Below, piece after piece: positions 9,238 through 29,360 of a DNA stretch of 32,000 nucleotides. The notes beneath the pieces were generated by a model, which was given only the letters and a program-made list of their open reading frames with translations, was not told where the DNA came from and ran no database searches. A program made the translations under genes and the position numbers. How positions within the stretch are numbered: the stretch's first letter is position 1; every line of letters begins with the position of its first letter. The stretch comes from Geotalea uraniireducens Rf4. Its GTDB lineage: Bacteria; Desulfobacterota; Desulfuromonadia; Geobacterales; Geobacteraceae. The DNA lies in contig NC_009483.1 of NCBI RefSeq assembly GCF_000016745.1, positions 210,001 through 242,000 on the forward strand. Reading direction: 5' to 3'.

Positions 9238-11088
9238 ATGCACTTCGGCGGCATCTATGAAGACGAAATAGTCGGCAAGGCCTACGATCGACGGCTCATG
9301 GCGCGCTTCATCCGCCATGTCCTCCCCTACCGGCGGCTGGTGGTGGGCACGCTGCTCATTCTGCCGCTCTTGGCGGCGGCCAAGCTGGCCCAGCCCTGGC
9401 TTTTGAAGATCGCCATCGACAACCATATCGTCGCCGGCCGGATGGATGGATTGCCGCTCGTTGCCGCGTACTACCTGGCCCTGATCCTCGCCGAATCGCT
9501 CCTGACTTTTGTCGAGGTCTACTATCTCCAGTACCTGGGGCAGCGGGTCATGTTCGACCTGCGCATTGAGCTGTTCAGCCATATCCAGCGGCTTTCCACG
9601 CGCTTTTTCGATCGCACCCCGGTGGGGAGCCTGGTGACGCGGCTCACCAGCGATGTGGAGGTGCTGGGGGAGATGTTCGCCGCCGGGGTCATCACCGTTG
9701 TCGGCGATATCCTCGTGCTGGCGGGGATCGTCGGCATCATGCTCTGGATGAACCTGCGCCTGTCGCTGGTTACCTTTTCCGTGTTGCCGTTCCTCCTCTG
9801 GATCGCCTTCACCTTCCGTAACCGGATGCGCACCGCCTTCCGCCAGGTGCGGGCAAGGCTGGCCAACCTCAACACCTTCCTGGCGGAAAACATCGGTGGC
9901 ATGGCGGTGGTGCAGCTCTTCAACCGGCAGCGCGCGGAGCAGGAGGAATTCCGCCGTCTCAACGCCGCTTACCGGGATGCCAACCTGCCGGTCATCACTT
10001 GGGATGCGGCCCTCTACGCTTTGGTCGAGGCACTTTCTGCCGTGGCAGTCGGCCTCATCATCTGGTACGGAGGGGGAGAGATCGTTCATGGCAGCCTCAC
10101 CTTCGGCGCGCTGGTCGCCTTTATCCAGTACATCGAGAAATTCTTCTCGCCGATCCGCGATCTGTCGGCCAAGTATTCGGTCATGCAGGGGGCGATGGCG
10201 GCCCTGGAGAGGATATACCGGCTGCTAGACACGGAATCTTCCCCCTCACCCCAACCCTCTCCTTTAGGCCCGCTGTTTGGGTCCACCGGGGGAGAGGGGG
10301 CCATTGAAGCCCCTCTCCCCTTGGAAAAGGGTGGCGCGGAGCACCGGGTAATGGAACCATCCCCACCCTTCATCGAATTCAAGGACGTCTGGTTCGCCTA
10401 CCAGGGTGAAGAGTATGTCCTCAAGGGATTCAATCTCCGGCTCAAGCGGGGGGAGAAGGTGGCGCTCGTCGGGGAGACCGGCGGCGGCAAGACGACAGTG
10501 ACACGGCTTCTGTCGAGGCTTTACGATGTGAATCTCGGCTCCATCACCATCGACGGGGTCGACATCCGCGACCTCCCCCTTGACCAGTTGCGCAGGAAAA
10601 TCGGCATCGTGCTTCAGGACCCCTACCTATTCACCGGCACGATCGCCTATAACATCGCTCTCGGCGATGCACGGGCAGGGGAGCGGATGGCGCAGGCTGT
10701 CCGGGTGGTCGGCGCCGACCGCTTCATCAGCCGCCTTGCCAACGGTTTCAGCGAAGAAGTGCGGGAGCGGGGGGTGAACTTCTCTGCCGGGGAGCGTCAG
10801 CTCATCTCCTTTGCCCGGGCGGTGGCCTTCGACCCGGAGATCCTCGTTCTCGACGAGGCGACCGCCAGCGTCGACAGCGAAGCTGAAAGGCTGATCGAGG
10901 AGGGGCTCAAAGGTCTTCTCTCCGGCCGGACCTCATTGGTGGTGGCCCACCGCCTCTCCACCATTCAGGACGCCGACCGGATAGTCGTCATCCACCGGGG
11001 CGAAAAGATGGAGGAAGGGAGCCACCGGGAGCTGCTGGCGGCAAAGGGGCTCTATTACCGGCTATATCAGTTGCAGTTCAAGGATTGA
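9238..11088 (+). CDS. ABC exporter, fused permease/ATP-binding protein (second of the pair)
   Basis: 616-aa ORF whose ATG directly follows the stop of the previous gene. Walker A GETGGGKTT, signature FSAGERQL, Walker B ILVLDEATASVD and H-loop VVAHRLST. Probably forms a heterodimer with the upstream gene. Carries an unusual linker insertion (see findings). Confidence 0.93.
   Translation: MHFGGIYEDEIVGKAYDRRLMARFIRHVLPYRRLVVGTLLILPLLAAAKLAQPWLLKIAIDNHIVAGRMDGLPLVAAYYLALILAESLLTFVEVYYLQYLGQRVMFDLRIELFSHIQRLSTRFFDRTPVGSLVTRLTSDVEVLGEMFAAGVITVVGDILVLAGIVGIMLWMNLRLSLVTFSVLPFLLWIAFTFRNRMRTAFRQVRARLANLNTFLAENIGGMAVVQLFNRQRAEQEEFRRLNAAYRDANLPVITWDAALYALVEALSAVAVGLIIWYGGGEIVHGSLTFGALVAFIQYIEKFFSPIRDLSAKYSVMQGAMAALERIYRLLDTESSPSPQPSPLGPLFGSTGGEGAIEAPLPLEKGGAEHRVMEPSPPFIEFKDVWFAYQGEEYVLKGFNLRLKRGEKVALVGETGGGKTTVTRLLSRLYDVNLGSITIDGVDIRDLPLDQLRRKIGIVLQDPYLFTGTIAYNIALGDARAGERMAQAVRVVGADRFISRLANGFSEEVRERGVNFSAGERQLISFARAVAFDPEILVLDEATASVDSEAERLIEEGLKGLLSGRTSLVVAHRLSTIQDADRIVVIHRGEKMEEGSHRELLAAKGLYYRLYQLQFKD
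10241..10320. repeat. GC-rich palindromic (REP-like) element embedded in-frame in the ABC exporter gene
   Basis: Perfect 11-bp inverted repeat ggggagagggg (10289-10299) / cccctctcccc (10310-10320) with a 10-nt loop. An upstream ccctctcc copy (10255-10262) is complementary to ggagaggg (10291-10298). Confidence 0.5.
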
Positions 11089-11098
11089 CGGTACTTTC

Positions 11099-11216
11099 AA
11101 AGGGAAGGCCATCATCTATGGTGAGCGGCAGGTACGGAAAAACAACGCTCATGCATGAAATTGTACGGGAGAGCAATGAGACCGAGATTTGGCAAGAGTT
11201 GAGACGACACCTTTGA
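11099..11216 (+). pseudogene. Relic of a P-loop (AAA-type) ATPase gene, truncated and frameshifted
   Basis: Hand translation of two frames. Frame A (11099-11134) reads KGKAIIYGERQV. After skipping one nucleotide (c at 11135), frame B (11136-11216) reads GKTTLMHEIVRESNETEIWQELRRHL*. Joined, they give a canonical Walker A, GERQVGKTT. There is no N-terminal part (the ABC gene stop is at 11086-11088) and no C-terminal body. Confidence 0.3.
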
Positions 11217-11328
11217 ATTCTTGCATGCCAGATACAAATTGCTTTAACCATTGGAACCCCCTATAATCCGTGGTCATCTTGAATTCAATCACTCTGGGGC
11301 TGAAAAGTCTTTTCGTGATGGAGGCGTT

Positions 11329-11607
11329 ATGACAAGCAAATCCTTGCCGGTTCGCGGCAACTTATCCTTCGAAGAGCTGAAAAAGCTCAATGAGCATGGC
11401 GCGCAATACTGGAGCGCCCGCAAGTTACAGCCACTATTGGGATACACCCAGTGGCGGCGCTTCGAGGATGCGATCAAACGGGCAATGATCTCCTGCGGGC
11501 AGTCAGGGAATAATCCCGATTATCATTTTGCCGGCGCCGGCAAAATGATCGAACTCGGAAGTGGGAAGGAAGTACGCGAGACAATCAAGCGTTCTGTAAC
11601 CACGTAA
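11329..11607 (+). CDS. dinD: DNA-damage-inducible protein D (DinD)-like, N-terminal fragment only (likely truncated remnant)
   Basis: The region LSFEELKKLNEHGAQYWSARKLQPLLGYTQWRRFEDAIKRAMISCGQSGNNPDYHF matches, from memory, the conserved N-terminal block of DinD proteins (~270 aa full length). This ORF stops after 92 aa counted from the ATG at 11329, which has GGAGG upstream. The ORF track shows a longer TTG-initiated version from 11251. Confidence 0.6.
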   Translation: MTSKSLPVRGNLSFEELKKLNEHGAQYWSARKLQPLLGYTQWRRFEDAIKRAMISCGQSGNNPDYHFAGAGKMIELGSGKEVRETIKRSVTT

Positions 11608-11869
11608 TGCGCTGTTAGCATCTTACGTTCCTAATGCTAGCCAGTGAAAATGTAAAATTGGGCGAAGTAAGGTAAAAGCGATTGGCAATAACGACTTATT
11701 GTGTCGTAACCCCATCATAACATGGCAATAAGCAACCATCTTTGCTGGTAGGGACAAATTACATTTTGTTGGATAAATAAATGGTTTTCTGATAAAAACC
11801 AACCCGGAGAACGTTTTCGGCCATGTGTAATTTCGGCAGCTTTTCATTGACAGAGAGATTATCGACTAC

Positions 11870-14800
11870 ATGACTACCCCCGCACAGAAAGCAATCTGGG
11901 TAGAGACCCTCTGGCTCGGGAACCGAAGCCATCCTGATCTTTTTCTTTCTGTGGATGAGGTCATTGGTGTACCGCATGCCTCGGCCATGAGGATCGGGTT
12001 CAACAAATTGAACCTATCCGGTTTTTTCTGCATAGACACCATTCCCACCATTGCATTTCTTTCTCAAGAACGAATCAATCGACTCGAAATAACCAGGGTA
12101 CACAATGCCCTCTGGAACCAGGGACTGGTCAGCCTCCTTTTGGTCACGCTCCCCGACGAGGTCCGTGCTTACTCTCTGGCCAGGAAACCAACCGCAGCGG
12201 ACGAAGACCTCGACGACGACAAAAAAGACAACCGTCTTATTGATTGCCTTGATCTATTGAAAGATGCGCTTGAAATCTCGCATCTGATTACCGGGGTTGA
12301 ATCCGGCCGATATTTTCAAAAGAATAAAGAGTACTTTGCACAAAATGAAAAGATCGATGCATTACTTCTGTCAAATTTAAGGGCCACGGAAAACGAGCTG
12401 ACCTCTGCGCCACTCAATCTGTCAACCGAATCCGCTCAGGCACTGCTGCTGCAGATTACCTTTATTGCCTATCTCGAAGACCGGGGGATTATCGATCCTG
12501 ACTATTTCCGGGAGGCATTGAAAGGCAAGGGGATATCTACTTTAGAACAGTTGCTGGACGAAAATGATCCTGAAAACCTGAATTCGCTTTTCGAAAAGCT
12601 CCATGGAAATTTTAACGGCGACATATTCTTTGCGCCATGTGCATTTGACGGCGAAGCAAAGGCACCAGTACTCAATGCGGGCCATCTGCGAAGTCTTGCG
12701 GAATTCAGAAAAGGGGGTGTCGATAAGACTACCGGCCAAGGTCGTTTCTGGCCGTATAACTTCAAATATATCCCCGTTGAGTTGATAAGCGCCATTTACA
12801 ACCGCTTCCTTGGCGACAGGCCGGTGGAGCGCAAAGTGAGCGGAGCCTTTTATACTCCTCACTTCCTCGCCGATTTAACGGTCAACCAATTGTGGGAAGA
12901 ATTGACGCCGGCAATCCGATCAAGTCAAGACTTCACGGTGCTGGATCCGGCCTGCGGCTCTGCGATATTCCTTGTCAGAATTTTTCAACGAATGGTGGAG
13001 GATTGGCGTTTTCTTCATCCCGGCGGGACTCCCGACTGGGATACTCTGGTTGCCATCGTCGAAAGACTCAACGGTTGGGACAAAGAAACCAGCGCTGTAC
13101 GCATCGGCATTTTCTCCCTCTATATTGCTTTGCTTGAAGAAGTCGAACCAGCTGCAATTCTCAAACTGTTGGCGGAACGGAAATTGTTGCCCCCACTTTT
13201 CAGGAAGACGATGTGCGACAGGGATTTCTTTGGCAAAGATACGCCAAATACCAAATTCGATTTGGTATTTGGCAATCCTCCATGGGTAAGCCGTAAGGAA
13301 GATCAGGTCGTTTCTGCCACTGAATGGTGCAAAGCACACGAACTACCGATGCCGGCGAAAGAACTGGCCTGGGCCTTTGTCTGGAAAAGCATCCAACATA
13401 CTAAATCAGAGGGGATGATCGGCTTACTGCTGCCGGCCATGGGCGTTTTACTCAACCATAGCGAACCTTCCATTCAAGCCAGGGGGCTGTGGCTGAAACA
13501 GGTACTTCTGAGTAAAGTCATCAATTTTTCTGATATCTGCTTCCTTCTGTTCGACGGCGCCAAGCGACCGACGGCTTTGTGTATCTTTCGACCGTCCGAC
13601 AAAAAGCTTAGCGATTATCGGTTCGACTACTGGTGCCCTAAAGCCGACCCGTTGCTGCAACAAACCCGCATGCTTACGTTGAACAGAGGCGATAAGCTAT
13701 CGTTTAAACTATCCACGGTGCTCCATGATCCGGGCTCTTGGGGGCGGCATCTCTGGATGACAAATCGTGACATGAAACTGCTCGGCTGGATTGGCGGGTT
13801 GTCTCGTCTGGAGAGAAAATTAGCCACCTATAAAGAATCACAGCAGAAAGAGTTCGATAAGAAAACAAAAGTTTGGATAATTGGACAAGGATTCCAGCCT
13901 TATAATAGTGAAAGAAGCAACAAGAATACTAAACCGAAAAAATCTAACCGGGTCGAAAAAGTTCCATTTTTGGATGCAAATAAGTTTAACGAATATATTA
14001 TCCCTACGATTTTAATTGACAAGCCTTGGCATACTTCCTTAGTTCGTAGACTTGGGAATCAAGATGGTTTTATTGGACCGCATGTCCTTATACCAAAAGG
14101 CGTACGAAGGAAAACTGGATTATTGAGAGCGGCATACGTAGAGCATGATTTATGTTTTACAGATGCAATACAGGCGATCAATTTTCCTGAGACAGATATT
14201 CAAAGACTTAAACTGCTAACGGTTATACTGAATAGTCATTTTGCAGCATGGTTCTATTTTCATGAAACCGCTAGCCTTGGAGCTGACCGTGCCTTGGTTC
14301 ATGAAGAACAGCTATTGGCGCTACCCTTTCCAGAAATAGACGAGTTGCCTGATCCAAAAGCGGCCAGAAATGCTGCGGATAAGATTGTCATGATTTTTGA
14401 TGATCTGCTTTTGCATAAAGACACATATTCACAAGGCCAATTCCCCGACAACGAAACAATTGAAGAGGTTAACCGGCTCGTCTATCAATACTATGGCCTC
14501 ACTGAATCGGAATTCATACTCATAGAAGACACCCTCAACTATATTCTGCCAAGCATTCAGCCTCGAAACAAAAGCTTCCCGCATCTTTGGAACAAAGCCG
14601 GCAAGAAGCAATGGCAAGAATACATGATCACTCTCTTGTCCGCTCTTGAAGAATGGCTGGACAACGGGAGCCACCTGTCCGCTACATTGATTACCGACAA
14701 CCCAGACGTGCTGCTGCTCGGCCTGAAAATCGAGCAAAGCCGCCCCAAGCAGTCCATTACCTTCTGTGAACAGGGGGGCGATTTCAACAAAACGCTTTCA

Positions 14801-15001
14801 AAAATCAATGAAGAGCTTAAACAGCAGGTGTCGAGAAACATTCAGCTCATGCCCGATCTCCGCATTTTCATCGCCGACACCCTCTACCTGTTAAAGCCGC
14901 GCACCATGCGCTATTGGCTTAAGAGCACGGCTCTGAACGATGCTGATGCAATTATTGCCGATCTTCAAATCCAGAAATTCCATCATGGGTACAAAGGATA
15001 G
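11870..15001 (+). CDS. Large gamma-class N6-adenine DNA methyltransferase of the MmeI/PglX (Type IIL/IIG-like) architecture
   Basis: 1043-aa ORF. It has the helical spacer motif LLLQITFIAYLEDRGII and NFNGDIFF (MmeI/PglX-like). Motif X is GAFYTPHFLADL (~12841), motif I is VLDPACGSAIFLV (12938-12976) and motif IV is FGNPPW (13268-13285). The C-terminal target-recognition-like region contains LLTVILNSHFAAWFYF. No Shine-Dalgarno sequence precedes the ATG, and an in-frame stop lies at 11828-11830. Confidence 0.9.
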   Translation: MTTPAQKAIWVETLWLGNRSHPDLFLSVDEVIGVPHASAMRIGFNKLNLSGFFCIDTIPTIAFLSQERINRLEITRVHNALWNQGLVSLLLVTLPDEVRAYSLARKPTAADEDLDDDKKDNRLIDCLDLLKDALEISHLITGVESGRYFQKNKEYFAQNEKIDALLLSNLRATENELTSAPLNLSTESAQALLLQITFIAYLEDRGIIDPDYFREALKGKGISTLEQLLDENDPENLNSLFEKLHGNFNGDIFFAPCAFDGEAKAPVLNAGHLRSLAEFRKGGVDKTTGQGRFWPYNFKYIPVELISAIYNRFLGDRPVERKVSGAFYTPHFLADLTVNQLWEELTPAIRSSQDFTVLDPACGSAIFLVRIFQRMVEDWRFLHPGGTPDWDTLVAIVERLNGWDKETSAVRIGIFSLYIALLEEVEPAAILKLLAERKLLPPLFRKTMCDRDFFGKDTPNTKFDLVFGNPPWVSRKEDQVVSATEWCKAHELPMPAKELAWAFVWKSIQHTKSEGMIGLLLPAMGVLLNHSEPSIQARGLWLKQVLLSKVINFSDICFLLFDGAKRPTALCIFRPSDKKLSDYRFDYWCPKADPLLQQTRMLTLNRGDKLSFKLSTVLHDPGSWGRHLWMTNRDMKLLGWIGGLSRLERKLATYKESQQKEFDKKTKVWIIGQGFQPYNSERSNKNTKPKKSNRVEKVPFLDANKFNEYIIPTILIDKPWHTSLVRRLGNQDGFIGPHVLIPKGVRRKTGLLRAAYVEHDLCFTDAIQAINFPETDIQRLKLLTVILNSHFAAWFYFHETASLGADRALVHEEQLLALPFPEIDELPDPKAARNAADKIVMIFDDLLLHKDTYSQGQFPDNETIEEVNRLVYQYYGLTESEFILIEDTLNYILPSIQPRNKSFPHLWNKAGKKQWQEYMITLLSALEEWLDNGSHLSATLITDNPDVLLLGLKIEQSRPKQSITFCEQGGDFNKTLSKINEELKQQVSRNIQLMPDLRIFIADTLYLLKPRTMRYWLKSTALNDADAIIADLQIQKFHHGYKG

Positions 15002-15007
15002 GTACTG

Positions 15008-15661
15008 GTGACTTGCGGCGACCCTTCAATCTGGCTGAAACATGTTATCGGGGTTCATGATAAGGTGCTGCAATCGATCATCGATGTCTGGCCTGATTGT
15101 GCCAAGCGCTTTGACTCTATGGCGCTGGAAAACCACATTACTGATCAACTGGTTTTATCTCTCCAACGTGATCCACAATCTCGGAAGAACTGGCTGGTTG
15201 TTCCTCAGCTCAAACTATTGGATGAAGATCTAGCGGGAGATGTAGTAACAAAAGGTTTTATAGATTTTGTCATATATTTTGACCTTATACAGGAAAACTA
15301 TATCGCCTACGAATGCAAACGATTGAATGTCAACTTTGACAGTGGCTTTGAATCACTAGCGGATAAGTATGTCGATAAGGGCCTAATGCGTTATGTTTCG
15401 GCACAGTACGCCCAAGGAATGCCGTTCGGAGTCATGGTCGGCTATGTGCTCGACAACGATGTTCAGGCAGCTCTTGAGGCGGTGAAAAGTCAAATCCAAA
15501 AAAAGAAAGGCAAATTGTTTTGTTTTGATAATCTGCCAACATCCGACTTGCCTACTCTCTCCTTTACTTTTCGATTTTCAAGTACTCACATCAGAAAATA
15601 TGCAGTTATTGAAGTTCAGCATTTACTGCTGCCATTAACGCCTGGCGACCTCATCGAGTAG
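15008..15661 (+). CDS. Hypothetical protein with a PD-(D/E)xK nuclease-like signature, translationally coupled to the methyltransferase
   Basis: 217-aa ORF starting at GTG 15008, 6 nt after the MTase TAG (14999-15001), with AAGGA 9 nt upstream. Candidate catalytic pattern: E41 (ALENHITDQL), D86 (GFIDFVIYF) and E102-C-K104 (YIAYECKRLN). Order and spacing fit the restriction-endonuclease fold. The fold assignment is by eye only. Confidence 0.7.
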   Translation: MTCGDPSIWLKHVIGVHDKVLQSIIDVWPDCAKRFDSMALENHITDQLVLSLQRDPQSRKNWLVVPQLKLLDEDLAGDVVTKGFIDFVIYFDLIQENYIAYECKRLNVNFDSGFESLADKYVDKGLMRYVSAQYAQGMPFGVMVGYVLDNDVQAALEAVKSQIQKKKGKLFCFDNLPTSDLPTLSFTFRFSSTHIRKYAVIEVQHLLLPLTPGDLIE

Positions 15662-15745
15662 CGCTTCGATATGTCGGCAGACACATTATTTCTGCGGCAG
15701 TTTCCCTTGCTATTTTACTAATCGCGCACATCATGGAGCGACGTA

Positions 15746-17656
<1,911 letters not shown>

Positions 17657-19694: not shown

Positions 19695-20123
19695 ATGGCG
19701 GAGGATTTCGTGAACGAACAACCGATCATGGTGGTTGAAGACAACCCGGATGACGAATTGCTGACCTTACGGGCATTAAAAAAATGCAATGTCCATAATG
19801 TTGTGGTGAGCCGGGATGGGGCGGAAGCCCTCGATTACTTGTTCCTGGCCCGGAACGAGGCTGCCGCCGAAAAGTATGTCATGCCCCGGTTCATTCTCCT
19901 CGACCTGAAGCTTCCCAAAATAGACGGGCTCCAATGTCTGCTGGCGATCCGGGCAGACGAGAGAACCAAGGATATTCCGATCATCATCGTCACCTCTTCG
20001 AAGGATGAGCGCGACATGAGCCGCTGCCGGACTCTGCGGGTGAAAGGTTACCTGAACAAACCGCTCGATCCGAAGGAACTTGCCGAAACGCTCCAAGAGC
20101 TGGGGATCAACTACCAGACGTAA
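19695..20123 (+). CDS. Single-domain response regulator (CheY-like receiver)
   Basis: 142-aa ORF. Receiver motifs are MVVEDNPDDE, phospho-acceptor FILLDLKLPKIDG, and IIIVTSS...LNKP. Confidence 0.9.
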   Translation: MAEDFVNEQPIMVVEDNPDDELLTLRALKKCNVHNVVVSRDGAEALDYLFLARNEAAAEKYVMPRFILLDLKLPKIDGLQCLLAIRADERTKDIPIIIVTSSKDERDMSRCRTLRVKGYLNKPLDPKELAETLQELGINYQT

Positions 20124-22084
20124 TCTTTGGCAATTTCCCGCTTGTCGTGTCCGTAGAGGATATGGAACACCCGCAGCTTTTTCAGCTTAACCGGTGACAG
20201 AGAGCCTAAAGGAATGTAGACGATCTTTTTGCCGAGCCGGGCCGCGATCTGTCTGAAATAGCTTCTGGGGGGCCTCGCAGCCACATAGACAACATGATTT
20301 TCAGGCGAATAATCGAGCGCCGCCAGAAGCAGCACTTCAGATTTCCCCCGAGCAAACGAATAATCCCCATCGCTCCAGACATCGAGCATCCGCCGCGGCG
20401 GGTAGGAGAGCAGAAAGCCGCCGTATTCGCACCGGGAGATGCCGGGACCGACGATGTTGTCGTCGGGCGGGGTGGCGTAGAAGGCCATGTCCGACTCCTG
20501 TGCATGTTCCCCGAGCCAGGTCATGAGGTAGGGATACCTGTCGTTGCCCCGGTCCTCGTCGAAGATCACTACTATTCCACCGACCCCACCCTTTACCCGC
20601 TGATTTTCCCGTACATAGATCCTCCCCTCGTGGATGTTCCTGAGCGTCTCGCGCATATCGATGCCATCGAGCATTGAGGCCGAGAAGGGCTCCACCCGGC
20701 TCTGCTCTTCGGAGAGCTGCTTCGCCCCCTTTTGTTTCAGGAACCGGCCGTAATCTTCGATGATCAGGTCTTCCGGCGGGTAGGAGCAGATGGACTGGTT
20801 GTCGAACCCTTCCAGCCACTCGCCGGGACGTTTTTCCTTCTTTCTCCTGAGAAAGGCCAGCGGCGAGAGCCCCTTGCCTCGCCGCTGCTCCTTCGGGCGG
20901 AAACGGATGCGGCGGCTTCCCGCCCAGAGATCCTCGGGGTGCAGGAGGATGGTGGGGATGTCGCTCTCTACCTTCTGCCAGGGTGTGAAGGAGGCGAGGC
21001 GGAAAAAGGCATAGGCGAAGTTGTCGTCCACGCAGGAGCGGGCAGCGGCGAGCATCTGGAAGAAGTCGGGGAGGAGCATGCCGGATGTGAGGGCGTAATT
21101 GCGGGCAAAGCGGAAGAATGCCCGTTTCTGCCAGATATGGACCGGTTCGCCGGTCTCCTGCCGGTAGTGGCGGGCGGTCTCCAGAAAGAGGCGATAGGCG
21201 ACACGCTGGCGGTCTGGCATCTCCCCTTCGCCCCCCACGTGGCGGGTGCTTCTGATAACGGATTGCCGCAATACCTCTTCTTCCGGCACGTCCTTTTTCC
21301 CGCCGAGAATCAGCTCAAGGGCGTTAAACTGCTTCCTCAGAGACAATCCATCTGTTGCCGGTTCCGGCGGCAGCTCGCCACGGCGCAGCTCAAAAATAGC
21401 GGAAAGGAACGGGTATTCAGCCAGAATCTCCCGGCAGGAGTCGGGATGGAGATTGAAGAGCCGGACGTTTTCCCTTCTTACCTTGGCGAGGGGCTCTCCC
21501 TGGGGATGAACGAAAAATGTTTTTATCCGCTCCAGGTGGTACATGCCGCAGACGAAAAGGATCCGTCCATGTTTCGCGGAAAGGTTTTGCAGATGGAAAG
21601 CCATCCCCTTTTCCCGGTGCAGGTCCGCTTTGCCGGGTCGGGTGGCGCGGGCAGCCCTGACGAACTCGTCGTAGTAGGCCTTAAGGCCCAGGCGCTGCAC
21701 CGCGTAGGAGTCGGGGAGGGCTTCGTCGTGGAGTGGATAGTCGTCCAGGTCCACGTCGATCAGCTCAAGCGGTATATCCTGCTCCAATGCCAGCCGTGCT
21801 GCCTCCACCAGCGGGTCGGCCGGCTCGATGATGAGGTAGATGTTCTGCGCCGCCTCCGTCTTGCTCCCCGGCTTTGTCTCGTAGCTGAGAACGGATATTT
21901 CCGGCAGCCGGCCGATGCCGCGCAGAAAGGCGGATCTTAGGGTAGGTGGGAGTTCGATGCAGATGCAGTCGGGCTTGAGCCGCGCCACTGCTTCCCGCAC
22001 CAGGTGGGCAAACTCCATCCGATAGTGGAGGATGGGGATGGCATGGACTGGACCGAATTGTTCGAGATGGAGTCTATGGGGCAT
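20111..22084 (-). CDS. Large conserved hypothetical protein; the N-terminal ~190 aa resemble the TraB/PrgY/GumN (Tiki-superfamily) fold, possibly DUF5682-like
   Basis: 657-aa ORF with clean coding character. The N-terminus IPILHYRMEFAHLVREAVARLKPDCICIELP, together with the later ILFVCGMYHLERI, parallels the GTAHVS...PDxVxVEL...VvGxgHxxGI layout of TraB-family proteins. Family assignment is from memory and is low confidence. Confidence 0.8.
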   Translation of the reverse strand: MPHRLHLEQFGPVHAIPILHYRMEFAHLVREAVARLKPDCICIELPPTLRSAFLRGIGRLPEISVLSYETKPGSKTEAAQNIYLIIEPADPLVEAARLALEQDIPLELIDVDLDDYPLHDEALPDSYAVQRLGLKAYYDEFVRAARATRPGKADLHREKGMAFHLQNLSAKHGRILFVCGMYHLERIKTFFVHPQGEPLAKVRRENVRLFNLHPDSCREILAEYPFLSAIFELRRGELPPEPATDGLSLRKQFNALELILGGKKDVPEEEVLRQSVIRSTRHVGGEGEMPDRQRVAYRLFLETARHYRQETGEPVHIWQKRAFFRFARNYALTSGMLLPDFFQMLAAARSCVDDNFAYAFFRLASFTPWQKVESDIPTILLHPEDLWAGSRRIRFRPKEQRRGKGLSPLAFLRRKKEKRPGEWLEGFDNQSICSYPPEDLIIEDYGRFLKQKGAKQLSEEQSRVEPFSASMLDGIDMRETLRNIHEGRIYVRENQRVKGGVGGIVVIFDEDRGNDRYPYLMTWLGEHAQESDMAFYATPPDDNIVGPGISRCEYGGFLLSYPPRRMLDVWSDGDYSFARGKSEVLLLAALDYSPENHVVYVAARPPRSYFRQIAARLGKKIVYIPLGSLSPVKLKKLRVFHILYGHDKREIAKDYVW

Positions 22085-22154
22085 GGGGAAACCTCTGTTC
22101 TACATTCATGAATTCACCGTATTCTCCCGACCCTTATCCACGCTCCTTTTCCGC

Positions 22155-22826
22155 TCAGGAAGGGAGTTCGGTCAATTCGCGACTGTTTATGATCCTGATG
22201 CCATTCTGTCGGTACCGCTCCAGCACCTTGGCCATGTCTCGTCCGGTCAGGACGGCATCCTGGATAACCGTGACCTTGTACCCCCGATTAAGCGCCCCGA
22301 GCGCCGTGTAGTAGACACAGAATGCGGCATCCAGACCTACCAGAAAAACTTCATCCACCTGACGGGCAATAAGAAACTGTTCAAGCTTCGGGTTTGAAAA
22401 GGCATCGGTTCTGTTCTTTTTGAAGTCATTGTTGTTGATGATCATGATGCGGCGGTCAATACGTGGTTCAAGCCGCCCTGCGAGTATGCGCCCTCCATGG
22501 AGCCTGGTGATGAGGTCATTCCCAAAGACCTGCCGGATATAGGCCACCTCCATCCCGGCTTGATCGAACCAGTCGATCACCCTGTTTGATGCAGCAATCA
22601 TCGCTCCAAGGGGTGTGGACGTGGAAAGGGGAATGGACTGTCGGTTGCTGCCGCCACCGCTCTCCTGGATATCCATGACCAGCAGCGCCTTAGTGGGGTG
22701 AGGGTAGGCCTCAATCCGTTTACCCTTGGTGGGGATGAACATGTTTCGCATGACGAACAGGCCGAACAGGAGCATCAGGACAGCGAATAGCGCCAGGGCT
22801 GTGAGGACGACGTTCAGAAAGGTCAT
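22155..22826 (-). CDS. Isochorismatase-family cysteine hydrolase with an N-terminal membrane anchor
   Basis: Carries ALLVMDIQE... and ...VDEVFLVGLDAAFCVYYTALGALNRGYKVTVIQDAV, the isochorismatase/nicotinamidase catalytic-Cys region. Start chosen at ATG 22826 (MTFLNVVLTALALFAVLMLLFGLFV, a TM helix) with GGAGA upstream. The ORF track extends it to 22892. Confidence 0.85.
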   Translation of the reverse strand: MTFLNVVLTALALFAVLMLLFGLFVMRNMFIPTKGKRIEAYPHPTKALLVMDIQESGGGSNRQSIPLSTSTPLGAMIAASNRVIDWFDQAGMEVAYIRQVFGNDLITRLHGGRILAGRLEPRIDRRIMIINNNDFKKNRTDAFSNPKLEQFLIARQVDEVFLVGLDAAFCVYYTALGALNRGYKVTVIQDAVLTGRDMAKVLERYRQNGIRIINSRELTELPS

Positions 22827-22904
22827 GGTCGCTTTTCTCCGTATTAGAAAGAAAAAGAATAAGAAGTTCAGACCTACGCTTTTGATTGTCAATTATGTAG
22901 GTTT

Positions 22905-22933
22905 GACCCTTTTCCATATGACCCTTTTCCATA
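22905..22933. repeat. Tandem 14-bp direct repeat GACCCTTTTCCATA x2 (15-bp period)
   Basis: Copies at 22905-22918 and 22920-22933, between the vapC 3' end and the isochorismatase-family gene start. Confidence 0.6.
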
Positions 22934-22961
22934 GGTCTTACCTTTATGGCTCAGTCCTACA

Positions 22962-23360
22962 TCACACCCAGATAACATTTACCAGATGCTCGACCATCTT
23001 GAATTCCGGGTCACCCGTAATAAGGTCTGCTGAATGCTCCATGGCCGAGGCAAGGGCAAAGGCGTCGGCATAGGATATGGGATAACGGGCCTTCAGTTCC
23101 GCGGCTCGGAAGACGAGGTCATTAGGACATGGGAGAATCGTAAAACCTATCCGCTGAATGTGAATGAACACCTCCAGCTTTTTCTGTTCGCCCAGTCGCC
23201 GCTGGGTTATGTAGATGATCTCACCCAGGTTGATGGCGTTGATCAGGCATGGCGTCTGCTGGGCAATGGCCTCTTTCAGCAGATCTCTCACCTTTTCCCC
23301 GCCCGTTTCCTTTTGAAAGAAGCGAAGCAGGGCAAAGCTGTCAAAAAGGAGCTTACTCAC
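22962..23360 (-). CDS. vapC: PIN-domain ribonuclease toxin (VapC)
   Basis: Reads LLFDSFALLRFFQKE...INAINLGEIIY..., with C-terminal acidic residues (SYADAFALASA...LITGDPEF), the PIN-domain layout. The GTG at 23360 overlaps the vapB stop (GTGAGTAA). The ORF-track version starts at GTG 23378. Confidence 0.85.
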   Translation of the reverse strand: MSKLLFDSFALLRFFQKETGGEKVRDLLKEAIAQQTPCLINAINLGEIIYITQRRLGEQKKLEVFIHIQRIGFTILPCPNDLVFRAAELKARYPISYADAFALASAMEHSADLITGDPEFKMVEHLVNVIWV

Positions 23361-23589
23361 CGGCGAAGTCCTTCCCACGTTCCTTCAGCAGCTCATCCGC
23401 CAGCGATGGGCCGGGAGGCAAAGCCCCATAAGCGGCTTCCACCGCGTCCTTCACCACCGGCGCAATGCAGATCATCTCGCCATACTCATAAATCTGTACA
23501 AGCGCACCAGGTTCCATATGATGGCGTTTCCGCAGTCCCGCCGGAATTACCACCTGCCCCTTGGTTGACACCTTGGCTGTGTTGTCCAT
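23353..23589 (-). CDS. vapB: AbrB/MazE/SpoVT-family antitoxin (VapB)
   Basis: MDNTAKVSTKGQVVIPAGLRKRHHMEPGALVQIYEYGEMICIAP is the swapped-hairpin AbrB-type DNA-binding domain. Start set at ATG 23589; the ORF-track extension to 23670 has no protein-like character. Confidence 0.85.
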   Translation of the reverse strand: MDNTAKVSTKGQVVIPAGLRKRHHMEPGALVQIYEYGEMICIAPVVKDAVEAAYGALPPGPSLADELLKERGKDFAGE

Positions 23590-23607
23590 ACCCGCTCCGC
23601 TAGTAAT

Positions 23608-23625
23608 ACGTTTTGTTAAAAACGT
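23608..23625. promoter_or_regulatory. Candidate vapBC operator (perfect inverted repeat)
   Basis: ACGTTTT-gtta-AAAACGT lies 19-36 nt upstream of the vapB start. This is the usual position for TA autoregulation sites. Confidence 0.4.
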
Positions 23626-23784
23626 ACAACATTCATTTCCTTTGGTCAAGGAGCAATTTTCTTGAATCAAAGATGTTCCTCAAAACCTATTTATGTTAAT
23701 TCTTGAGCTCTGCTGACCCCTCTGGTTGGCTCGTTCGAGCCCGCATGTCAACGGAACATCGCTGGTTTACGGAGATGGGTGGTG

Positions 23785-24603
23785 CTACTTCAAATACCGC
23801 AGCGCTTCTTCGCCAAGTATCCGCTCCACCGCCAGCGGCAAGAGCTCCTTGGGCTCCTTCTCCGTAGCGGCCATCATCTTCAGGGCGTAGCGGGCTATGT
23901 TTATGCCGTCCCGCACCGAATAGAGCTCATCGGCGGCATGGGCGCGCTGCAGAAAGTCCACCACGTACTTGAGGATCGCGCTGCCGGCAAAGGGGAGGTT
24001 CTCCTTGAGGATATGCAGCTCCTCGTCCGCTTCGGGAAAGTCGATGTAGATCTGCGGCTGGAGACGGGAGTGGATGTATTCGGGCACCTCGAAGGTGGAG
24101 GCGTCCTCGTTCATGGTGACGACGATGCGGAAATCGGGATGGGCGGGGATGCGCAGGCCGGTGATGATCGATTCAACGTAGCGCCGGTCGTCCAGAAGCG
24201 GTGCCAGCGAAGCCCACGCCTTTTCGCTCATCCGGTTCCCCTCGTCGAGGATCAGCACCCCGCCGCTGACCATGGCGGAAACCAGGGACGAGGCGGCGTA
24301 CTGGATCTTGCCGTCAGGGCCGATCACCGGCGTGACGATCAGGTCCTCCGGCCGGGTGTCCATGGTGGCCTGGAAGAGATAGACCTTGCGCCCGAGGGTG
24401 CGGGCCGCGGCATAGGCGAGGGTGGTTTTCCCCACCCCCGGTTTGCCGATCAGGCGGGGGTTGAAGGGGATGTCCCGCTCGTCGATGACCATCCAGGCTG
24501 CGAGAAGCTGCTTCAAGAGCTCCCCCTGGCCGACCCATTTCAGTGAGAGCTTCACCGGATTGGCCAAGGTGAGGTTGATATCGTCTATAGTTATTCTCTC
24601 CAT
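23785..24603 (-). CDS. AAA_5-type ATPase (MoxR/CbbQ/NorQ-like)
   Basis: 272-aa ORF. Walker A is GKPGVGKTT and Walker B is VLILDEGNR. The region ...DDRRYVESIITG...HPDFRIVVTMNE... is typical of CbbQ/NorQ/MoxR-class ATPases. GGAGG lies upstream of the ATG. Confidence 0.9.
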   Translation of the reverse strand: MERITIDDINLTLANPVKLSLKWVGQGELLKQLLAAWMVIDERDIPFNPRLIGKPGVGKTTLAYAAARTLGRKVYLFQATMDTRPEDLIVTPVIGPDGKIQYAASSLVSAMVSGGVLILDEGNRMSEKAWASLAPLLDDRRYVESIITGLRIPAHPDFRIVVTMNEDASTFEVPEYIHSRLQPQIYIDFPEADEELHILKENLPFAGSAILKYVVDFLQRAHAADELYSVRDGINIARYALKMMAATEKEPKELLPLAVERILGEEALRYLK

Positions 24604-24643
24604 CCATCCTCCAGTTTTTTCGGAACGAGGAGCGAAGACAAAG

Positions 24644-24805
24644 GTTCGAGGATCGAGGATAAAGGATCGAGGATAAAGGATCGAGGAAAACCATAACCTA
24701 GAACCTAGAACCTAGAACCTCGAACCTCGAACCTCGAACCTCGAACCTCGAACCTCGAACCTCGAACCTCGAACCTCGTTCCTCGAACCTTGCTCCTTGC
24801 TCCTC
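24644..24805. repeat. Heptanucleotide tandem-repeat array A (23 units in unbroken 7-nt phase)
   Basis: Read on the + strand in 7-nt phase from 24644: GTTCGAG; then GATCGAG/GATAAAG alternating x5; GAAAACC; ATAACCT; AGAACCT x3; CGAACCT x8; then diverged CGTTCCT, CGAACCT, TGCTCCT x2. Re-phased as GAACCTC there are 9 perfect copies, at 24715-24777. Confidence 0.95.
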
Positions 24806-24986
24806 AGGTATTGTGTTCATGCAGGTACATCATCGCCAGCCTCGCCCTGTTCTCCAGGCATTCGGGGCAGAGCTCGCCGGCGTCGTTCCAGACCTCGGCG
24901 GCCAGCCATTCCCCGGCCTCGGCGAAGACCGATCTTGCCTCCGCATTTTCGTCAAATTCGCATTTACAAATGGTGCAGGTTTTCAT
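24804..24986 (-). CDS. Small CxxC...CxxC zinc-ribbon protein, 60 aa
   Basis: MKTCTICKCEFDENAEARSVFAEAGEWLAAEVWNDAGELCPECLENRARLAMMYLHEHNT. It has two CxxC pairs, a good SD (AAGGA 6 nt upstream of the ATG) and non-shadow amino-acid composition. It lies between hemH and the AAA ATPase gene on the same strand. Confidence 0.55.
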   Translation of the reverse strand: MKTCTICKCEFDENAEARSVFAEAGEWLAAEVWNDAGELCPECLENRARLAMMYLHEHNT

Positions 24987-25053
24987 ACTTCATCCTTCAT
25001 CCTTCATCCTTCACTTTTCACTACTCACTACTCACTACTCACTACTCACCGTT
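24984..25053. repeat. Heptanucleotide tandem-repeat array B (10 units)
   Basis: + strand: CATACTT, CATCCTT x3, CACTTTT, CACTACT x4, CACCGTT. On the coding (minus) strand these read AGTAGTG x4 and AAGGATG x3. Confidence 0.95.
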
Positions 25054-26000
25054 TTGTGCACCAGGTTCGCCAGGCAGTCGATGAACAGGGGGGACGTGTT
25101 CAGCGACGGCGAGCGGCGGAAATGCTCGATGCCGAGCCCTTTTGCCTCTTCCGCATACTGGATGTCGATCTCGTAGAGGGTCTCGATGTGGTCCGAGACA
25201 AAGGAGAGGGGGACCATGAGCAGCTCCTTGCACCCCCCCTTTGCCAGCTTTTGTATCATCTCCTCCGTGGAGGGCTCCAGCCACTTCACCGGGCCGGCAC
25301 GCGATTGAAACGCCAGGTGATAGTTCACGTTCCCCAGCCGCTCCATGACGAGACGTACCGTTTCCAGAATATGGGAGAGATAGGGGTCACCTTCGTCGAT
25401 GAAAGACTGGGGGAGGGAATGGGCGGAAAAGACCAGCTCCACTTCCGATCGGTTGGAAAACTGCGCCAAACCTTCCTCGATTTTTGCCGCGAGGGCCGCG
25501 ATATAGAGGGGGTGATCGTAGAAGCGGTCCACATAGCTGACCTCGAACCGTGCTCCGGCCTCTCCCAGGACCCGCTTCAGCTCGTTGATGCTGGAGCCGG
25601 TGGTTGCCCGTGAATAGTGGGGGTAGAGGGAGAGGGCGATGACGCGGGAGATGCCTTCCCTCTTGATGGCCGCCAGGGCATCGATGGTTGTGGGTTTCCA
25701 GTAGCGCATGGCGACGAAGCAACGGAAATTTCCGCCGAGCTTTTCTTCCAGGGCCTGCGCCTGTGCTTCGGTCAGCTCTCGGATCGGCGATTTGCCGCCG
25801 ATCTGCGAGTAGTAACCTTCCACCTTCGGCGCCCGTTTGCGGCAGATGCGCCGGGCAATGAACGGCTGCAGGAAGGCTGGTCCGATCTTGATAATTTCCC
25901 GATCGGAGAAAAGATTGAGGAGAAAAGGCTCGACGGCTTCAATGGAATCCGGTCCACCCATCTGGAGAAGGAGTACGGCGGTCTTTTCAGGCATTGTCAC
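25035..26000 (-). CDS. hemH: Ferrochelatase
   Basis: 321-aa ORF. Reads [11 protein letters not shown]...[10 protein letters not shown]..., ...YWKPTT..., ...LSLYPHYS... and ...FSAHSLP...GDPY..., the canonical HemH motifs. The last four codons and the stop lie inside repeat array B. Confidence 0.95.
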
Positions 26001-26198
26001 CTCGTGTTACAGGCAGGGTGTGATGGAACGGAACAATTCAACGCTGATATGAACAGCTATTAAGCAATAAGGGCGTCGATTTGTCAATGGGAATCCCCGG
26101 CAGGCGGGGGCGTGAGCTGTTTTCCGACGCCTCTCGCAAATCCTGTTCAGGTGTGTATAATAATCATGTATCTCCATTCCGGTTGTTTCGAGGTGGCC

Positions 26199-26879
26199 AT
26201 GAAGATCTACGACATAACAATGCCGTTATCTGCCGATATGCCGACGTATCCGGGGGACCCGACGGTAAAGATCGAGCCGGTGACCAGGATCGCCCGGGGC
26301 GATGCAGCCAATGTTTCATGCATTTCCATGTCCACCCACAGCGGCACCCACATCGACGTTTCACGCCACTACAGCGACCATGGCCTTTCCGTGGATCATC
26401 TGCCCCTGACCCTTCTGGTCGGAAGAGCCTTGCTGGCGGAGGTTCACGGGGTGAGAGAGATAGGACGGGAGCAGTTAAAACGGTTGCCGCTGAAAGGGGA
26501 AGAGCGGCTTTTGCTCAAAACGGACAATTCCGCCTTGTGGGTCCGGCAGGGGTTTTGGGAAGACTATGCCCATCTGACCGAAGACGGCGCTGCCTATCTG
26601 GTGGAGATGGGGGTGAAGCTGGTCGGCATTGATTACCTCTCGGTTGAGCGCCATGACGGCAACGGGGACGTGCATCGGCTCCTCCTGGGCAATGGCGCGG
26701 TGATCCTGGAGGGGTTGAACCTGGACGGCGTTTCTCCGGGGAATTATGAACTTATCTGTCTGCCGCTGAAAATAAAGGATGGCGATGGCGCGCCGGTCAG
26801 GGCGGTGTTGCGGAGCAGAGAGGGGACAGGAACCGAGAAGGAATTTGACGCGCATACGAGCAAGTGGCCGCTCGCCTGA
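26199..26879 (+). CDS. Cyclase-family protein (kynurenine formamidase-like metal hydrolase)
   Basis: MKIYDITMPLSADMPTYPGDP...MSTHSGTHIDVSRHY carries the HxGTHxD motif of the putative-cyclase/KynB family. Start set at ATG 26199 with GAGGTGG upstream. The ORF-track extension from 26112 is not protein-like. Confidence 0.85.
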   Translation: MKIYDITMPLSADMPTYPGDPTVKIEPVTRIARGDAANVSCISMSTHSGTHIDVSRHYSDHGLSVDHLPLTLLVGRALLAEVHGVREIGREQLKRLPLKGEERLLLKTDNSALWVRQGFWEDYAHLTEDGAAYLVEMGVKLVGIDYLSVERHDGNGDVHRLLLGNGAVILEGLNLDGVSPGNYELICLPLKIKDGDGAPVRAVLRSREGTGTEKEFDAHTSKWPLA

Positions 26880-29270: not shown

Positions 29271-29288
29271 TGGTCTGGTGCCGGCAAC

Positions 29289-29338
29289 GCACAAGTAAAA
29301 AGGGACGGGCTTGAAGGCCTGTCCCTTTTTACTTGTGC
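29289..29338. terminator. Bidirectional rho-independent terminator between slyD (+) and the rubrerythrin-like gene (-)
   Basis: gcacaagtAAAAAgggac...gtcccTTTTTacttgtgc forms an 18-bp outer stem. The GC core is flanked by an A-tract on one side and a T-tract on the other, so it works in both orientations. Confidence 0.8.
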
Positions 29339-29360
29339 GTCGTCATCAGTGCCGTTGCGA

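Follow-up and report, generated by a model that had tools for sequence, protein, structure and literature searches.

Between a small, conserved open reading frame (ORF) and the gene of a MoxR-like ATPase, the window (by which we mean the whole stretch of 32,000 nt that was analysed) carries a tandem array of heptanucleotides. The array raises three questions: whether it is real, where it comes from, and what, if anything, it does to the genes on either side of it. The explanation that we favor, and to which we would give a probability of about 0.6, is that it represents a slippage-expanded copy of one of the fast-evolving, repeat-built palindromes of the Geobacteraceae, which would act as an intercistronic RNA hairpin and would be at most modulatory. 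The features on which this reading is built are collected in Table 1, where related loci and contigs are designated by L numbers.

Table 1. Features of the window (positions on the 32,000-nt stretch) and elements found at related loci.
Feature	Position or locus	Strand	Remark
Ferrochelatase gene hemH	25035-26000	-	opens the conserved cluster
Second pair of 7-mer arrays, hemH / small-ORF junction	24988-25050	-	
Conserved 60-aa Cys-rich ORF, two CxxC pairs	24804-24986	-	directly upstream of the array
Hairpin 5' arm	24700-24804	-	sense GGAGCAA x2, GGTTCGA, GGAACGA, GGTTCGA x8, GGTTCTA x3
Core, apparently recently expanded, nine GAGGTTC (sense)	24715-24777		three copies in L082
Apical loop units GAAAACC, ATAACCT (plus strand)	24686-24699	-	in register; conserved in L001 and L082
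Hairpin 3' arm	24623-24685	-	CCTCGATCCTTTAT 14-mers (2.8 copies), CCTCGAACC, TTTGTCT, TCGCTCC, TCGTTCC
Shine-Dalgarno GGAGGA of the ATPase gene	24607-24612	-	just 3' of the hairpin base, outside the main stem
MoxR-like AAA_5 ATPase gene	23785-24603	-	directly downstream of the array
Paired arrays, CCGTTCA x4 with AACGGTC x11	L036		
Paired arrays, GTGAATG with TTCACCA x12-14	L051, L065		between the ATPase and 657-aa genes
Further paired arrays	L071, L030, L076		
Small-ORF / ATPase junction: GTGAAAG/CTTTCAC heptamer hairpin	L002, L020, L093-L098		
Small-ORF / ATPase junction: GGCAAAG/TTGCCTA hairpin	L076		
Small-ORF / ATPase junction: 130-147-nt hairpin, ATCTGAG and TCTCCG units	Geomonas, Citrifermentans		followed by a T run
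Small-ORF / ATPase junction: G/C-rich palindromes	L026, L060		
Small-ORF / ATPase junction: palindromic element	L084, L017, L031, L034		core like the GRCGTAGCGCTGCTACGCC family of the G. metallireducens paper
Small-ORF / ATPase junction: spacer of just 0-20 nt	about fifteen loci, e.g. L012, L028, L032		

The plus strand can be cut into 7-mers from 24616 to 24804 without a single register shift. Before 24644 the units read GAACGAG, GAGCGAA and GACAAAG, and the next one is GTTCGAG. An alternation of GATCGAG and GATAAAG follows (24651-24685), and after it come GAAAACC, ATAACCT, three AGAACCT, eight CGAACCT, CGTTCCT, CGAACCT and two TGCTCCT, the last of which ends at 24804. An initial annotation of this DNA had described a 7-nt tandem array of 23 phase-locked units. 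The register cut (23 units over 24644-24804), TRF and the nine GAACCTC copies of the core, all of them perfect and read as GAGGTTC on the sense strand, confirm this description, and the array proves to be slightly longer, with about 26 units in the same register over 24623-24804. TRF reports a period of 7 at 24695-24790 (13.7 copies, 94% matches, score 157) and a period of 14 at 24649-24687 (2.8 copies, 100% matches). The sequence CGAGGNNCGAGG occurs 10 times in the window against 0.18 occurrences expected; all 10 lie inside the array, and the remainder of the 32-kb window holds no further copy.

Two inverted arms of 60 nt each (24627-24686 and 24746-24805) are 78% complementary, and both of them are 7-nt periodic. 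The phase is kept across the loop as well, but this would happen by chance in one case out of seven and was given no evidential weight. Read on the sense strand, the array begins with a unit of the 5' arm that overlaps the TGA stop codon of the 60-aa ORF, and 10 nt lie between the end of the array and the GGAGGA of the ATPase gene; the 7-mers of its 3' arm are pyrimidine-rich on this strand and contain CCTC. With its excess of head-to-tail 7-nt copies and a length that differs between relatives, the locus is a heptanucleotide simple sequence repeat in the sense of Mrazek 2007. A minus-strand ORF of 40 aa that runs across the array (24698-24820) was rejected as a gene: it results from the repeat itself and would be far shorter in the close relative L082.

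Tandem repeats are a classical source of mis-assembly, and it was thus plausible to ask whether the array, or its length, is foreign to the real genome. L001, a contig assembled from short reads (SRR29904084), encodes an ATPase identical to that of the window, and its spacer is also the same, with an exact match of about 110 nt, up to the point where the contig breaks inside the (GAGGTTC)n run. This identity of both gene and spacer argues against an artefact, and a break inside a perfect run is what is expected of a real repeat that exceeds the word size of the assembler. On the other hand, L001 is the only independent contig with identical flanks, and because of this break it leaves the copy number unconfirmed; exact-protein look-ups of the hemH product and of the 60-aa ORF returned no record, and thus no second assembly spanning the array. 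Nevertheless, homologous arrays with fewer units are present in four or more other assemblies, and the perfect run is only 63 nt long, which is below ordinary read length. An assembly artefact, which the initial annotation had allowed for, therefore seems extremely improbable to us.

The genes around the array, hemH, the 60-aa ORF and the ATPase gene among them, are all located on the minus strand, on which the order is hemH, 60-aa ORF, array, ATPase, a MazE/PIN toxin-antitoxin pair, an isochorismatase-family gene and a gene for a 657-aa protein. Neither the 60-aa nor the 657-aa protein has a Pfam or NCBIfam match. The ATPase is 83-97% identical to proteins of other Geobacteraceae (among them Geotalea, Citrifermentans and Geomonas), and the core order of hemH, small ORF, ATPase and 657-aa protein is repeated across 80 orthologous loci. 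The junctions of the cluster in relatives often consist of a 4-nt overlap (ATGA) or of just 0-20 nt, and such tight junctions suggest that the cluster is co-transcribed and translationally coupled. The location of the array on the sense strand of an apparent operon, proposed in the initial annotation, thus finds support both in this conserved, co-oriented cluster and in the junctions of its relatives.

Several features of this region deserve a mention in their own right. The conserved cluster corresponds to 20111-26000 of the window (minus strand) and to L002-L081, across the Geobacteraceae, and its link with ferrochelatase may point to a chaperone system that serves metal insertion or is related to haem. 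In most species little separates the ATPase gene from the 657-aa gene, but in the window (22155-23670) this junction has received the MazE/PIN pair and the isochorismatase-family gene, just upstream of which a perfect 15-nt direct repeat, TGACCCTTTTCCATA, is present twice (22904-22933). Other cargo is found at the same junction in close relatives (L082 2864-4994, L093 2525-3424), namely DUF4410, small genes and toxin-antitoxin pairs, and the junction looks like an insertion hot spot. Elsewhere in the window, G+C falls to 0.45-0.49 over about 5 kb (11001-16000) in comparison to 0.52-0.66 in the rest, and this segment may have been acquired horizontally. At 29287-29340 there is a 24-nt inverted repeat, 96% complementary, with a 6-nt loop and a T/A-rich center (ACGCACAAGTAAAAAGGGACGGGC / GCCTGTCCCTTTTTACTTGTGCGT), which may be a terminator or an operator.

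Folding of the array region had been recommended as a check, together with the claim that self-complementary arms would form a long imperfect hairpin, and both came out in favor of the hairpin. The sense RNA (24590-24815, minus strand) is predicted to form a single long imperfect hairpin with an MFE of -98.5 kcal/mol (z = -5.2), and not one of 200 shuffled sequences folded as well; the antisense strand folds nearly equally (z = -5.6). In the predicted structure the outer 30 nt of each side pair well, GAGGAGCAAGGAGCAAGGUUCGAGGAACGAGG with CCUCGAUCCUCGAACCUUUGUCUUCGCUCCUC, and the extra GAGGUUC units of the longer 5' arm fold upon themselves near the apex. A promoter scan of 23500-26300 found no promoter-like site. 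In Rfam, no family matched anywhere in the window at gathering thresholds, and at E <= 1 the region was hit only by models of plant microRNA precursors, with 25-27 bits against thresholds of 117-135.

Homologous hairpins, all of them shorter, are located at the same junction in related genomes. In L082, with an ATPase 97% identical to that of the window and flanking DNA identical at about 93%, the spacer is 116 nt long; in L083 (ATPase 96% identical) it measures 95 nt, and in L039, L041, L045 and L029, a group that includes Geobacter argillaceus, 94-104 nt at an identity of about 87%. The arms and the loop of these hairpins are recognisably homologous to those of the 200-nt version in the window. 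The 5' arm of L082 consists of GGAGCGA, two GGTTCGA and two GGTTCTA units, and its 3' arm is short of one 14-mer. Relative to L082, the window copy has gained about 84 nt, mainly in the form of mutually identical GGTTCGA units, and since these units are still identical, a recent expansion by slippage is suggested. Of the slipped-strand length variation that had been put forward for this array, the differences in length are borne out between lineages (200, 116 and 95 nt), with slippage as their probable cause. Within a population, no variation was seen in a related lineage, in which a different and short imperfect heptamer hairpin, along with a 9-unit junction array, both at the corresponding sites, is base-for-base identical in five metagenome samples.

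The folding of the short homologues is less striking, with z-scores of -1.3 to -1.6, and of +0.3 in L029. Their consensus stem is kept, nearly without compensatory changes: an alignment of the homologous hairpins gave a positive covariation term (+2.09), with changes on both sides in only 2 of 19 pairs, and was uninformative. Compensatory change being so scarce, selection for pairing is not demonstrated.

Taken over a wider range of species, the site between the small ORF and the ATPase gene is occupied by several unrelated sequence families (Table 1), and most relatives in which the spacer exceeds 90 nt carry a hairpin that fills it. Among close relatives, the units at this junction are CGAGGNN, GTGAAAG, GGCAAAG or ATCTGAG. 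Many of the spacers above 90 nt fold far better than their shuffles, with z as low as -8.8, and in the spacers that we read the base of the hairpin is located about 15-20 nt upstream of the start codon. Between the close species Geomonas oryzae and G. edaphica the element is cleanly present or absent, a difference of about 125 nt, and a comparison of these filled and empty sites revealed no clear target-site duplication. It needs to be stressed that the spacer is dispensable in many species, and thus a neutral or selfish element fits these observations equally as well as a functional one.

One of the families is also dispersed. A palindromic element with the core GCGGCGTA...TACGCC is found in L084 (2350-2470), L013 (17130-17320), L027 (20120-20310) and L056 (13200-13400), and again upstream of the ATPase gene, in the small-ORF / ATPase spacer, in L017, L031, L034 and L074. 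Matches to (CGAGGNN)x3 in L013, L027 and L056 turned out to belong to a palindromic element other than that of the window, and those in L088 and L092 lie within hairpin-rich sequence; they were set aside.

Is the period of 7 nt itself a peculiarity of this locus? The initial annotation had asked for a tandem-repeat count of 7-mer arrays, and we ran it on 1.42 Mb of Geobacteraceae DNA, with a minimum of 3.5 copies as the single criterion for every period. Period 7 leads by far among periods that are not multiples of three, with 33 arrays, followed by period 5 (13 arrays) and period 8 (3 arrays), and none were found with a period of 10 or 11. When an inverted partner was defined as two or more reverse-complement units in tandem, no further than 250 nt away, 17 of the 51 seven-mer arrays reported by TRF had such a partner, as compared with 5.5% of shuffled-unit controls. 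Sorting of the arrays into coding and non-coding ones by spanning open frames was uninformative, because arrays at gene ends extend the open frames.

The unit family of the window was also detected at unrelated loci. On the metagenome contig L087 it forms a hairpin in the trpE/trpG spacer, which by reading has about 36 nt in common with the 3' arm, with one mismatch, and on another metagenome contig, L090, it makes up three arrays beside a duplicated toxin-antitoxin module. Presence of the same units at unrelated loci implies that local slippage does not account for everything: identical units must arise repeatedly, or the elements are mobile. Both contigs come from a metagenome scan with a 19-nt anchor taken from the 3' arm, which gave eight matches, and among those inspected they are the only two with extended similarity. 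The match in L085 is unrelated, A+T-rich and due to chance; L086 and L091 have a similarly low G+C (0.43-0.44), and L088, L089 and L092 have the anchor alone in common, in a different context. On L090 (1-1942, activated sludge) the tandemly duplicated module comprises two genes, with ORFs of 99 and 79 aa, and arrays of the GGATCGAGGAWAAA type, which differ little from the 14-mer of the window, flank both of its copies. These arrays may mark the module duplication, or they may promote it.

It is worth comparing these findings with repeats known from other bacteria. The heptanucleotide STRR repeats of Calothrix and Nostoc, reportedly described by Mazel and colleagues in 1990, consist of units dispersed in many copies per cyanobacterial genome. 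Like the array in the window they are tandem heptanucleotide arrays in non-coding DNA, but both the phylum and the unit differ (Geobacteraceae and GAGGTTC here); the parallel with STRR drawn in the initial annotation is an analogy only. The REP/BIME sequences of enterobacteria are extragenic palindromes known as mRNA stabilisers. They resemble the window element as imperfect palindromes between co-transcribed genes (as the cluster genes would be) whose presence varies among relatives, but REP units have no internal tandem repeats.

Within the Geobacteraceae, elements of this kind have been described before: paired inverted arrays of 7-9-nt units have been published for Geobacter metallireducens (Aklujkar et al. 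2009, PMC2700814). Three classes of paired tandem-repeat sites on opposite strands were annotated there: four GTTGCTYN octamers (24 pairs), three TCTCCGTS[Y] repeats (21 pairs), and five MTYCTGA heptamers per strand (eight pairs, one of them between proB and proA), along with a 49-copy element that contains four GGACCGG heptamers (PMC2700814). The window array shares with them the family, the short tandem arrays on opposite strands, the variable spacer and the intergenic location, within operons included. However, its unit, GAGGTTC/CCTCGAT, matches none of GTTGCTYN, TCTCCGTS[Y] and MTYCTGA, and in comparison to the third class its arms are longer and very unequal (16 and 10 units versus 5 and 5). 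Judged by its sequence, the array would be a further class beyond the three published ones. The general kind of element to which it belongs was noted in Geobacter in 2009 and is uncharacterised.

Two other bodies of work are relevant here. According to the account of Mrazek 2007 given in PMC4679880 and PMC4692102, heptanucleotides are more abundant than any other long repeats in most prokaryotic genomes, and polymerase slippage has been suggested as the source of their excess. The GGGAATC repeats of Xanthomonas and GGGGAYT repeats of Nostoc differ between close relatives at the same junctions and are sometimes present as inverted pairs (Rehm et al. 2015). The window array agrees with such prokaryotic heptanucleotide repeats in the excess of 7 nt over other non-triplet periods, in being intergenic and variable among relatives, and in the occasional inverted pairs; it departs from them in a unit that is neither G-rich nor quadruplex-forming and in that the opposite arm of the hairpin is also repetitive. 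In hmw1A of H. influenzae, (ATCTTTC)n forms one arm of a 5'-UTR hairpin that is processed by RNase III, and expression tracks the number of units (Rapun-Araiz et al. 2025, PMC12721329). The similarity lies in a heptanucleotide array, variable in unit number, that forms one side of a long RNA hairpin ahead of a gene. In hmw1A, however, the other arm is non-repetitive and G-rich, the gene is that of a phase-variable adhesin, and the repeat lies between promoter and gene; effects on RNase III processing and on expression are established there, whereas the window hairpin is known here from its sequence and predicted fold.

How might the array have arisen, and what might it do? The plan of the element is that of two short-tandem-repeat arrays (here of 7 nt) on opposite strands. 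Its ancestor would have been a hairpin of about 95-115 nt built of diverged GGNNCGA / CCTCGNN heptamers, which replication slippage would have lengthened to 200 nt in this lineage, with a gain of about seven GAGGTTC units, one TAGGTTC and two or three more units in the sense 5' arm and of a single 14-mer in the 3' arm. Provided that one mRNA covers the cluster, the element should fold into a long hairpin, imperfect and of about 50 base pairs, with the Shine-Dalgarno sequence left outside the main stem. A stem-loop between cistrons might act as a barrier to exonucleases or as a site for a double-strand RNase (RNase III), and with either the barrier or the cleavage, the mRNA of the ATPase and 657-aa genes could vary in level independently of that of hemH and the small ORF. 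The effect is probably small or near neutral. Slippage alone leaves unexplained why both arms are repetitive and why identical units occur at unrelated loci.

The hmw1A system suggests a more ambitious role, in which frequent changes in the number of GAGGTTC units set the expression of the ATPase and 657-aa genes, thus making the array a tunable or phase-variable switch. Modelled on (ATCTTTC)n, such a switch would rely either on RNase III and a hairpin in the 5' leader or on repeated GAGG motifs that capture ribosomes. Nine perfect units are indeed a slippage-prone substrate, their number differs strongly between lineages with about 93% identical flanks, and hmw1A provides the precedent of a heptamer hairpin arm that controls expression through RNase III (PMC12721329). 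However, when the number of GAGGTTC units was varied in silico from 0 to 15, the probability that the Shine-Dalgarno sequence of the ATPase gene is unpaired stayed at 0.32-0.33 (equilibrium folding as a proxy), and the sequestration of ribosomes or of the Shine-Dalgarno sequence proposed in the initial annotation is thus left without support. The constancy of the short hairpin and 9-unit array of a different lineage in five metagenome samples speaks against frequent change, the adjoining genes are of a housekeeping type, neither surface nor contingency genes, and the spacer element is absent in many species. We thus consider a switch unlikely. Another function for a stem-loop at this place would be that of an intrinsic terminator or attenuator, with hemH and the small ORF on one side and the ATPase gene on the other. 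In Geomonas and Citrifermentans a run of 6-8 T follows the hairpin and directly precedes the GGAG of the ATPase gene, and it is plausible that it could terminate part of the transcripts there. The stem in the window is followed by GAAAAAAC and not by a T run, as an intrinsic terminator would be, a terminator scan of 23500-26300 found no minus-strand site, and the 5' arm is far longer than the 3' arm, unlike in compact terminators. Termination at the window array is hence very improbable.

It might also be that the array works at the level of DNA, the inverted arrays being binding sites of an IHF/HU-like nucleoid protein or global regulator, as was put forward, in the form of a prediction, for the paired classes of G. 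metallireducens (PMC2700814). The architecture, with arrays on opposite strands at a variable distance, is the same, and the presence of one unit family at unrelated loci is what a common recognition sequence predicts. Yet the IHF consensus WATCAANNNNTTR has no match in the array or in the whole window, so that this reading is not supported for the window array, and the units are wholly different between close relatives, which a conserved regulator is unlikely to tolerate. From helical geometry, moreover, a 7-bp period should place successive sites on different faces of the helix, and the G. metallireducens proposal is itself a prediction. We regard a protein-binding array as quite unlikely, and return to the slippage-expanded intercistronic hairpin as the preferred reading.

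One may go further and imagine a process specific to the Geobacteraceae that makes, spreads and resizes paired arrays of about 7 nt at gene junctions, with the resulting hairpins serving as tunable intercistronic RNA elements. This is a speculative idea, and we would not bet on it. If it were true, paired arrays would originate from a mobile palindromic element or from template-switching, and the ratio of arm units would set the relative expression of neighbors in core metabolic operons. The single array in the window, a hairpin built of repeats and unusual in its length, is of little import. More can be learned from the comparison, in which one and the same junction holds unrelated heptamer hairpins, another palindrome, or nothing, and a third of the heptamer arrays of the family form inverted pairs. 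This comparison offers a testable system for two questions, namely why 7-nt repeats dominate among the long repeats of bacteria and whether hairpins built of repeats tune operon expression; as Geobacter is genetically tractable, reporter and RNase III work is feasible.

Heptamers are also found at the other end of the small ORF. The second pair of arrays in the window, for which no inverted partner was located, overlaps the stop codon of hemH and reaches into the start codon of the small ORF, and its sense units read four GTGAGTA, GTGAAAA, GTGAAGG, three ATGAAGG and ATGAAGT. In many species the stop codon of hemH and the start codon of the small ORF overlap in a 4-nt ATGA; other species have arrays of GTGANNN or ATGAAGG heptamers in its place (window, 11 units; L082, 7; L093, 9). 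Such sites are located at L020 9716-9751, L025 9750-9778, L030 9774-9802, L032 9773-9802, L033 9795-9823 and L093 1151-1211. Every unit combines a start codon with a TGA stop and with purine-rich sequence that resembles a Shine-Dalgarno, and the arrays have the look of a coupling motif duplicated in tandem; their period of 7 nt places a stop in all three frames. Upstream of hemH, L093-L096 carry inverted octamer arrays at 7-31 and 61-85, ACGCAGAG x3.1 and TCTCTGCG x3.1, the architecture of which is that of the window hairpin, but with an 8-nt unit.
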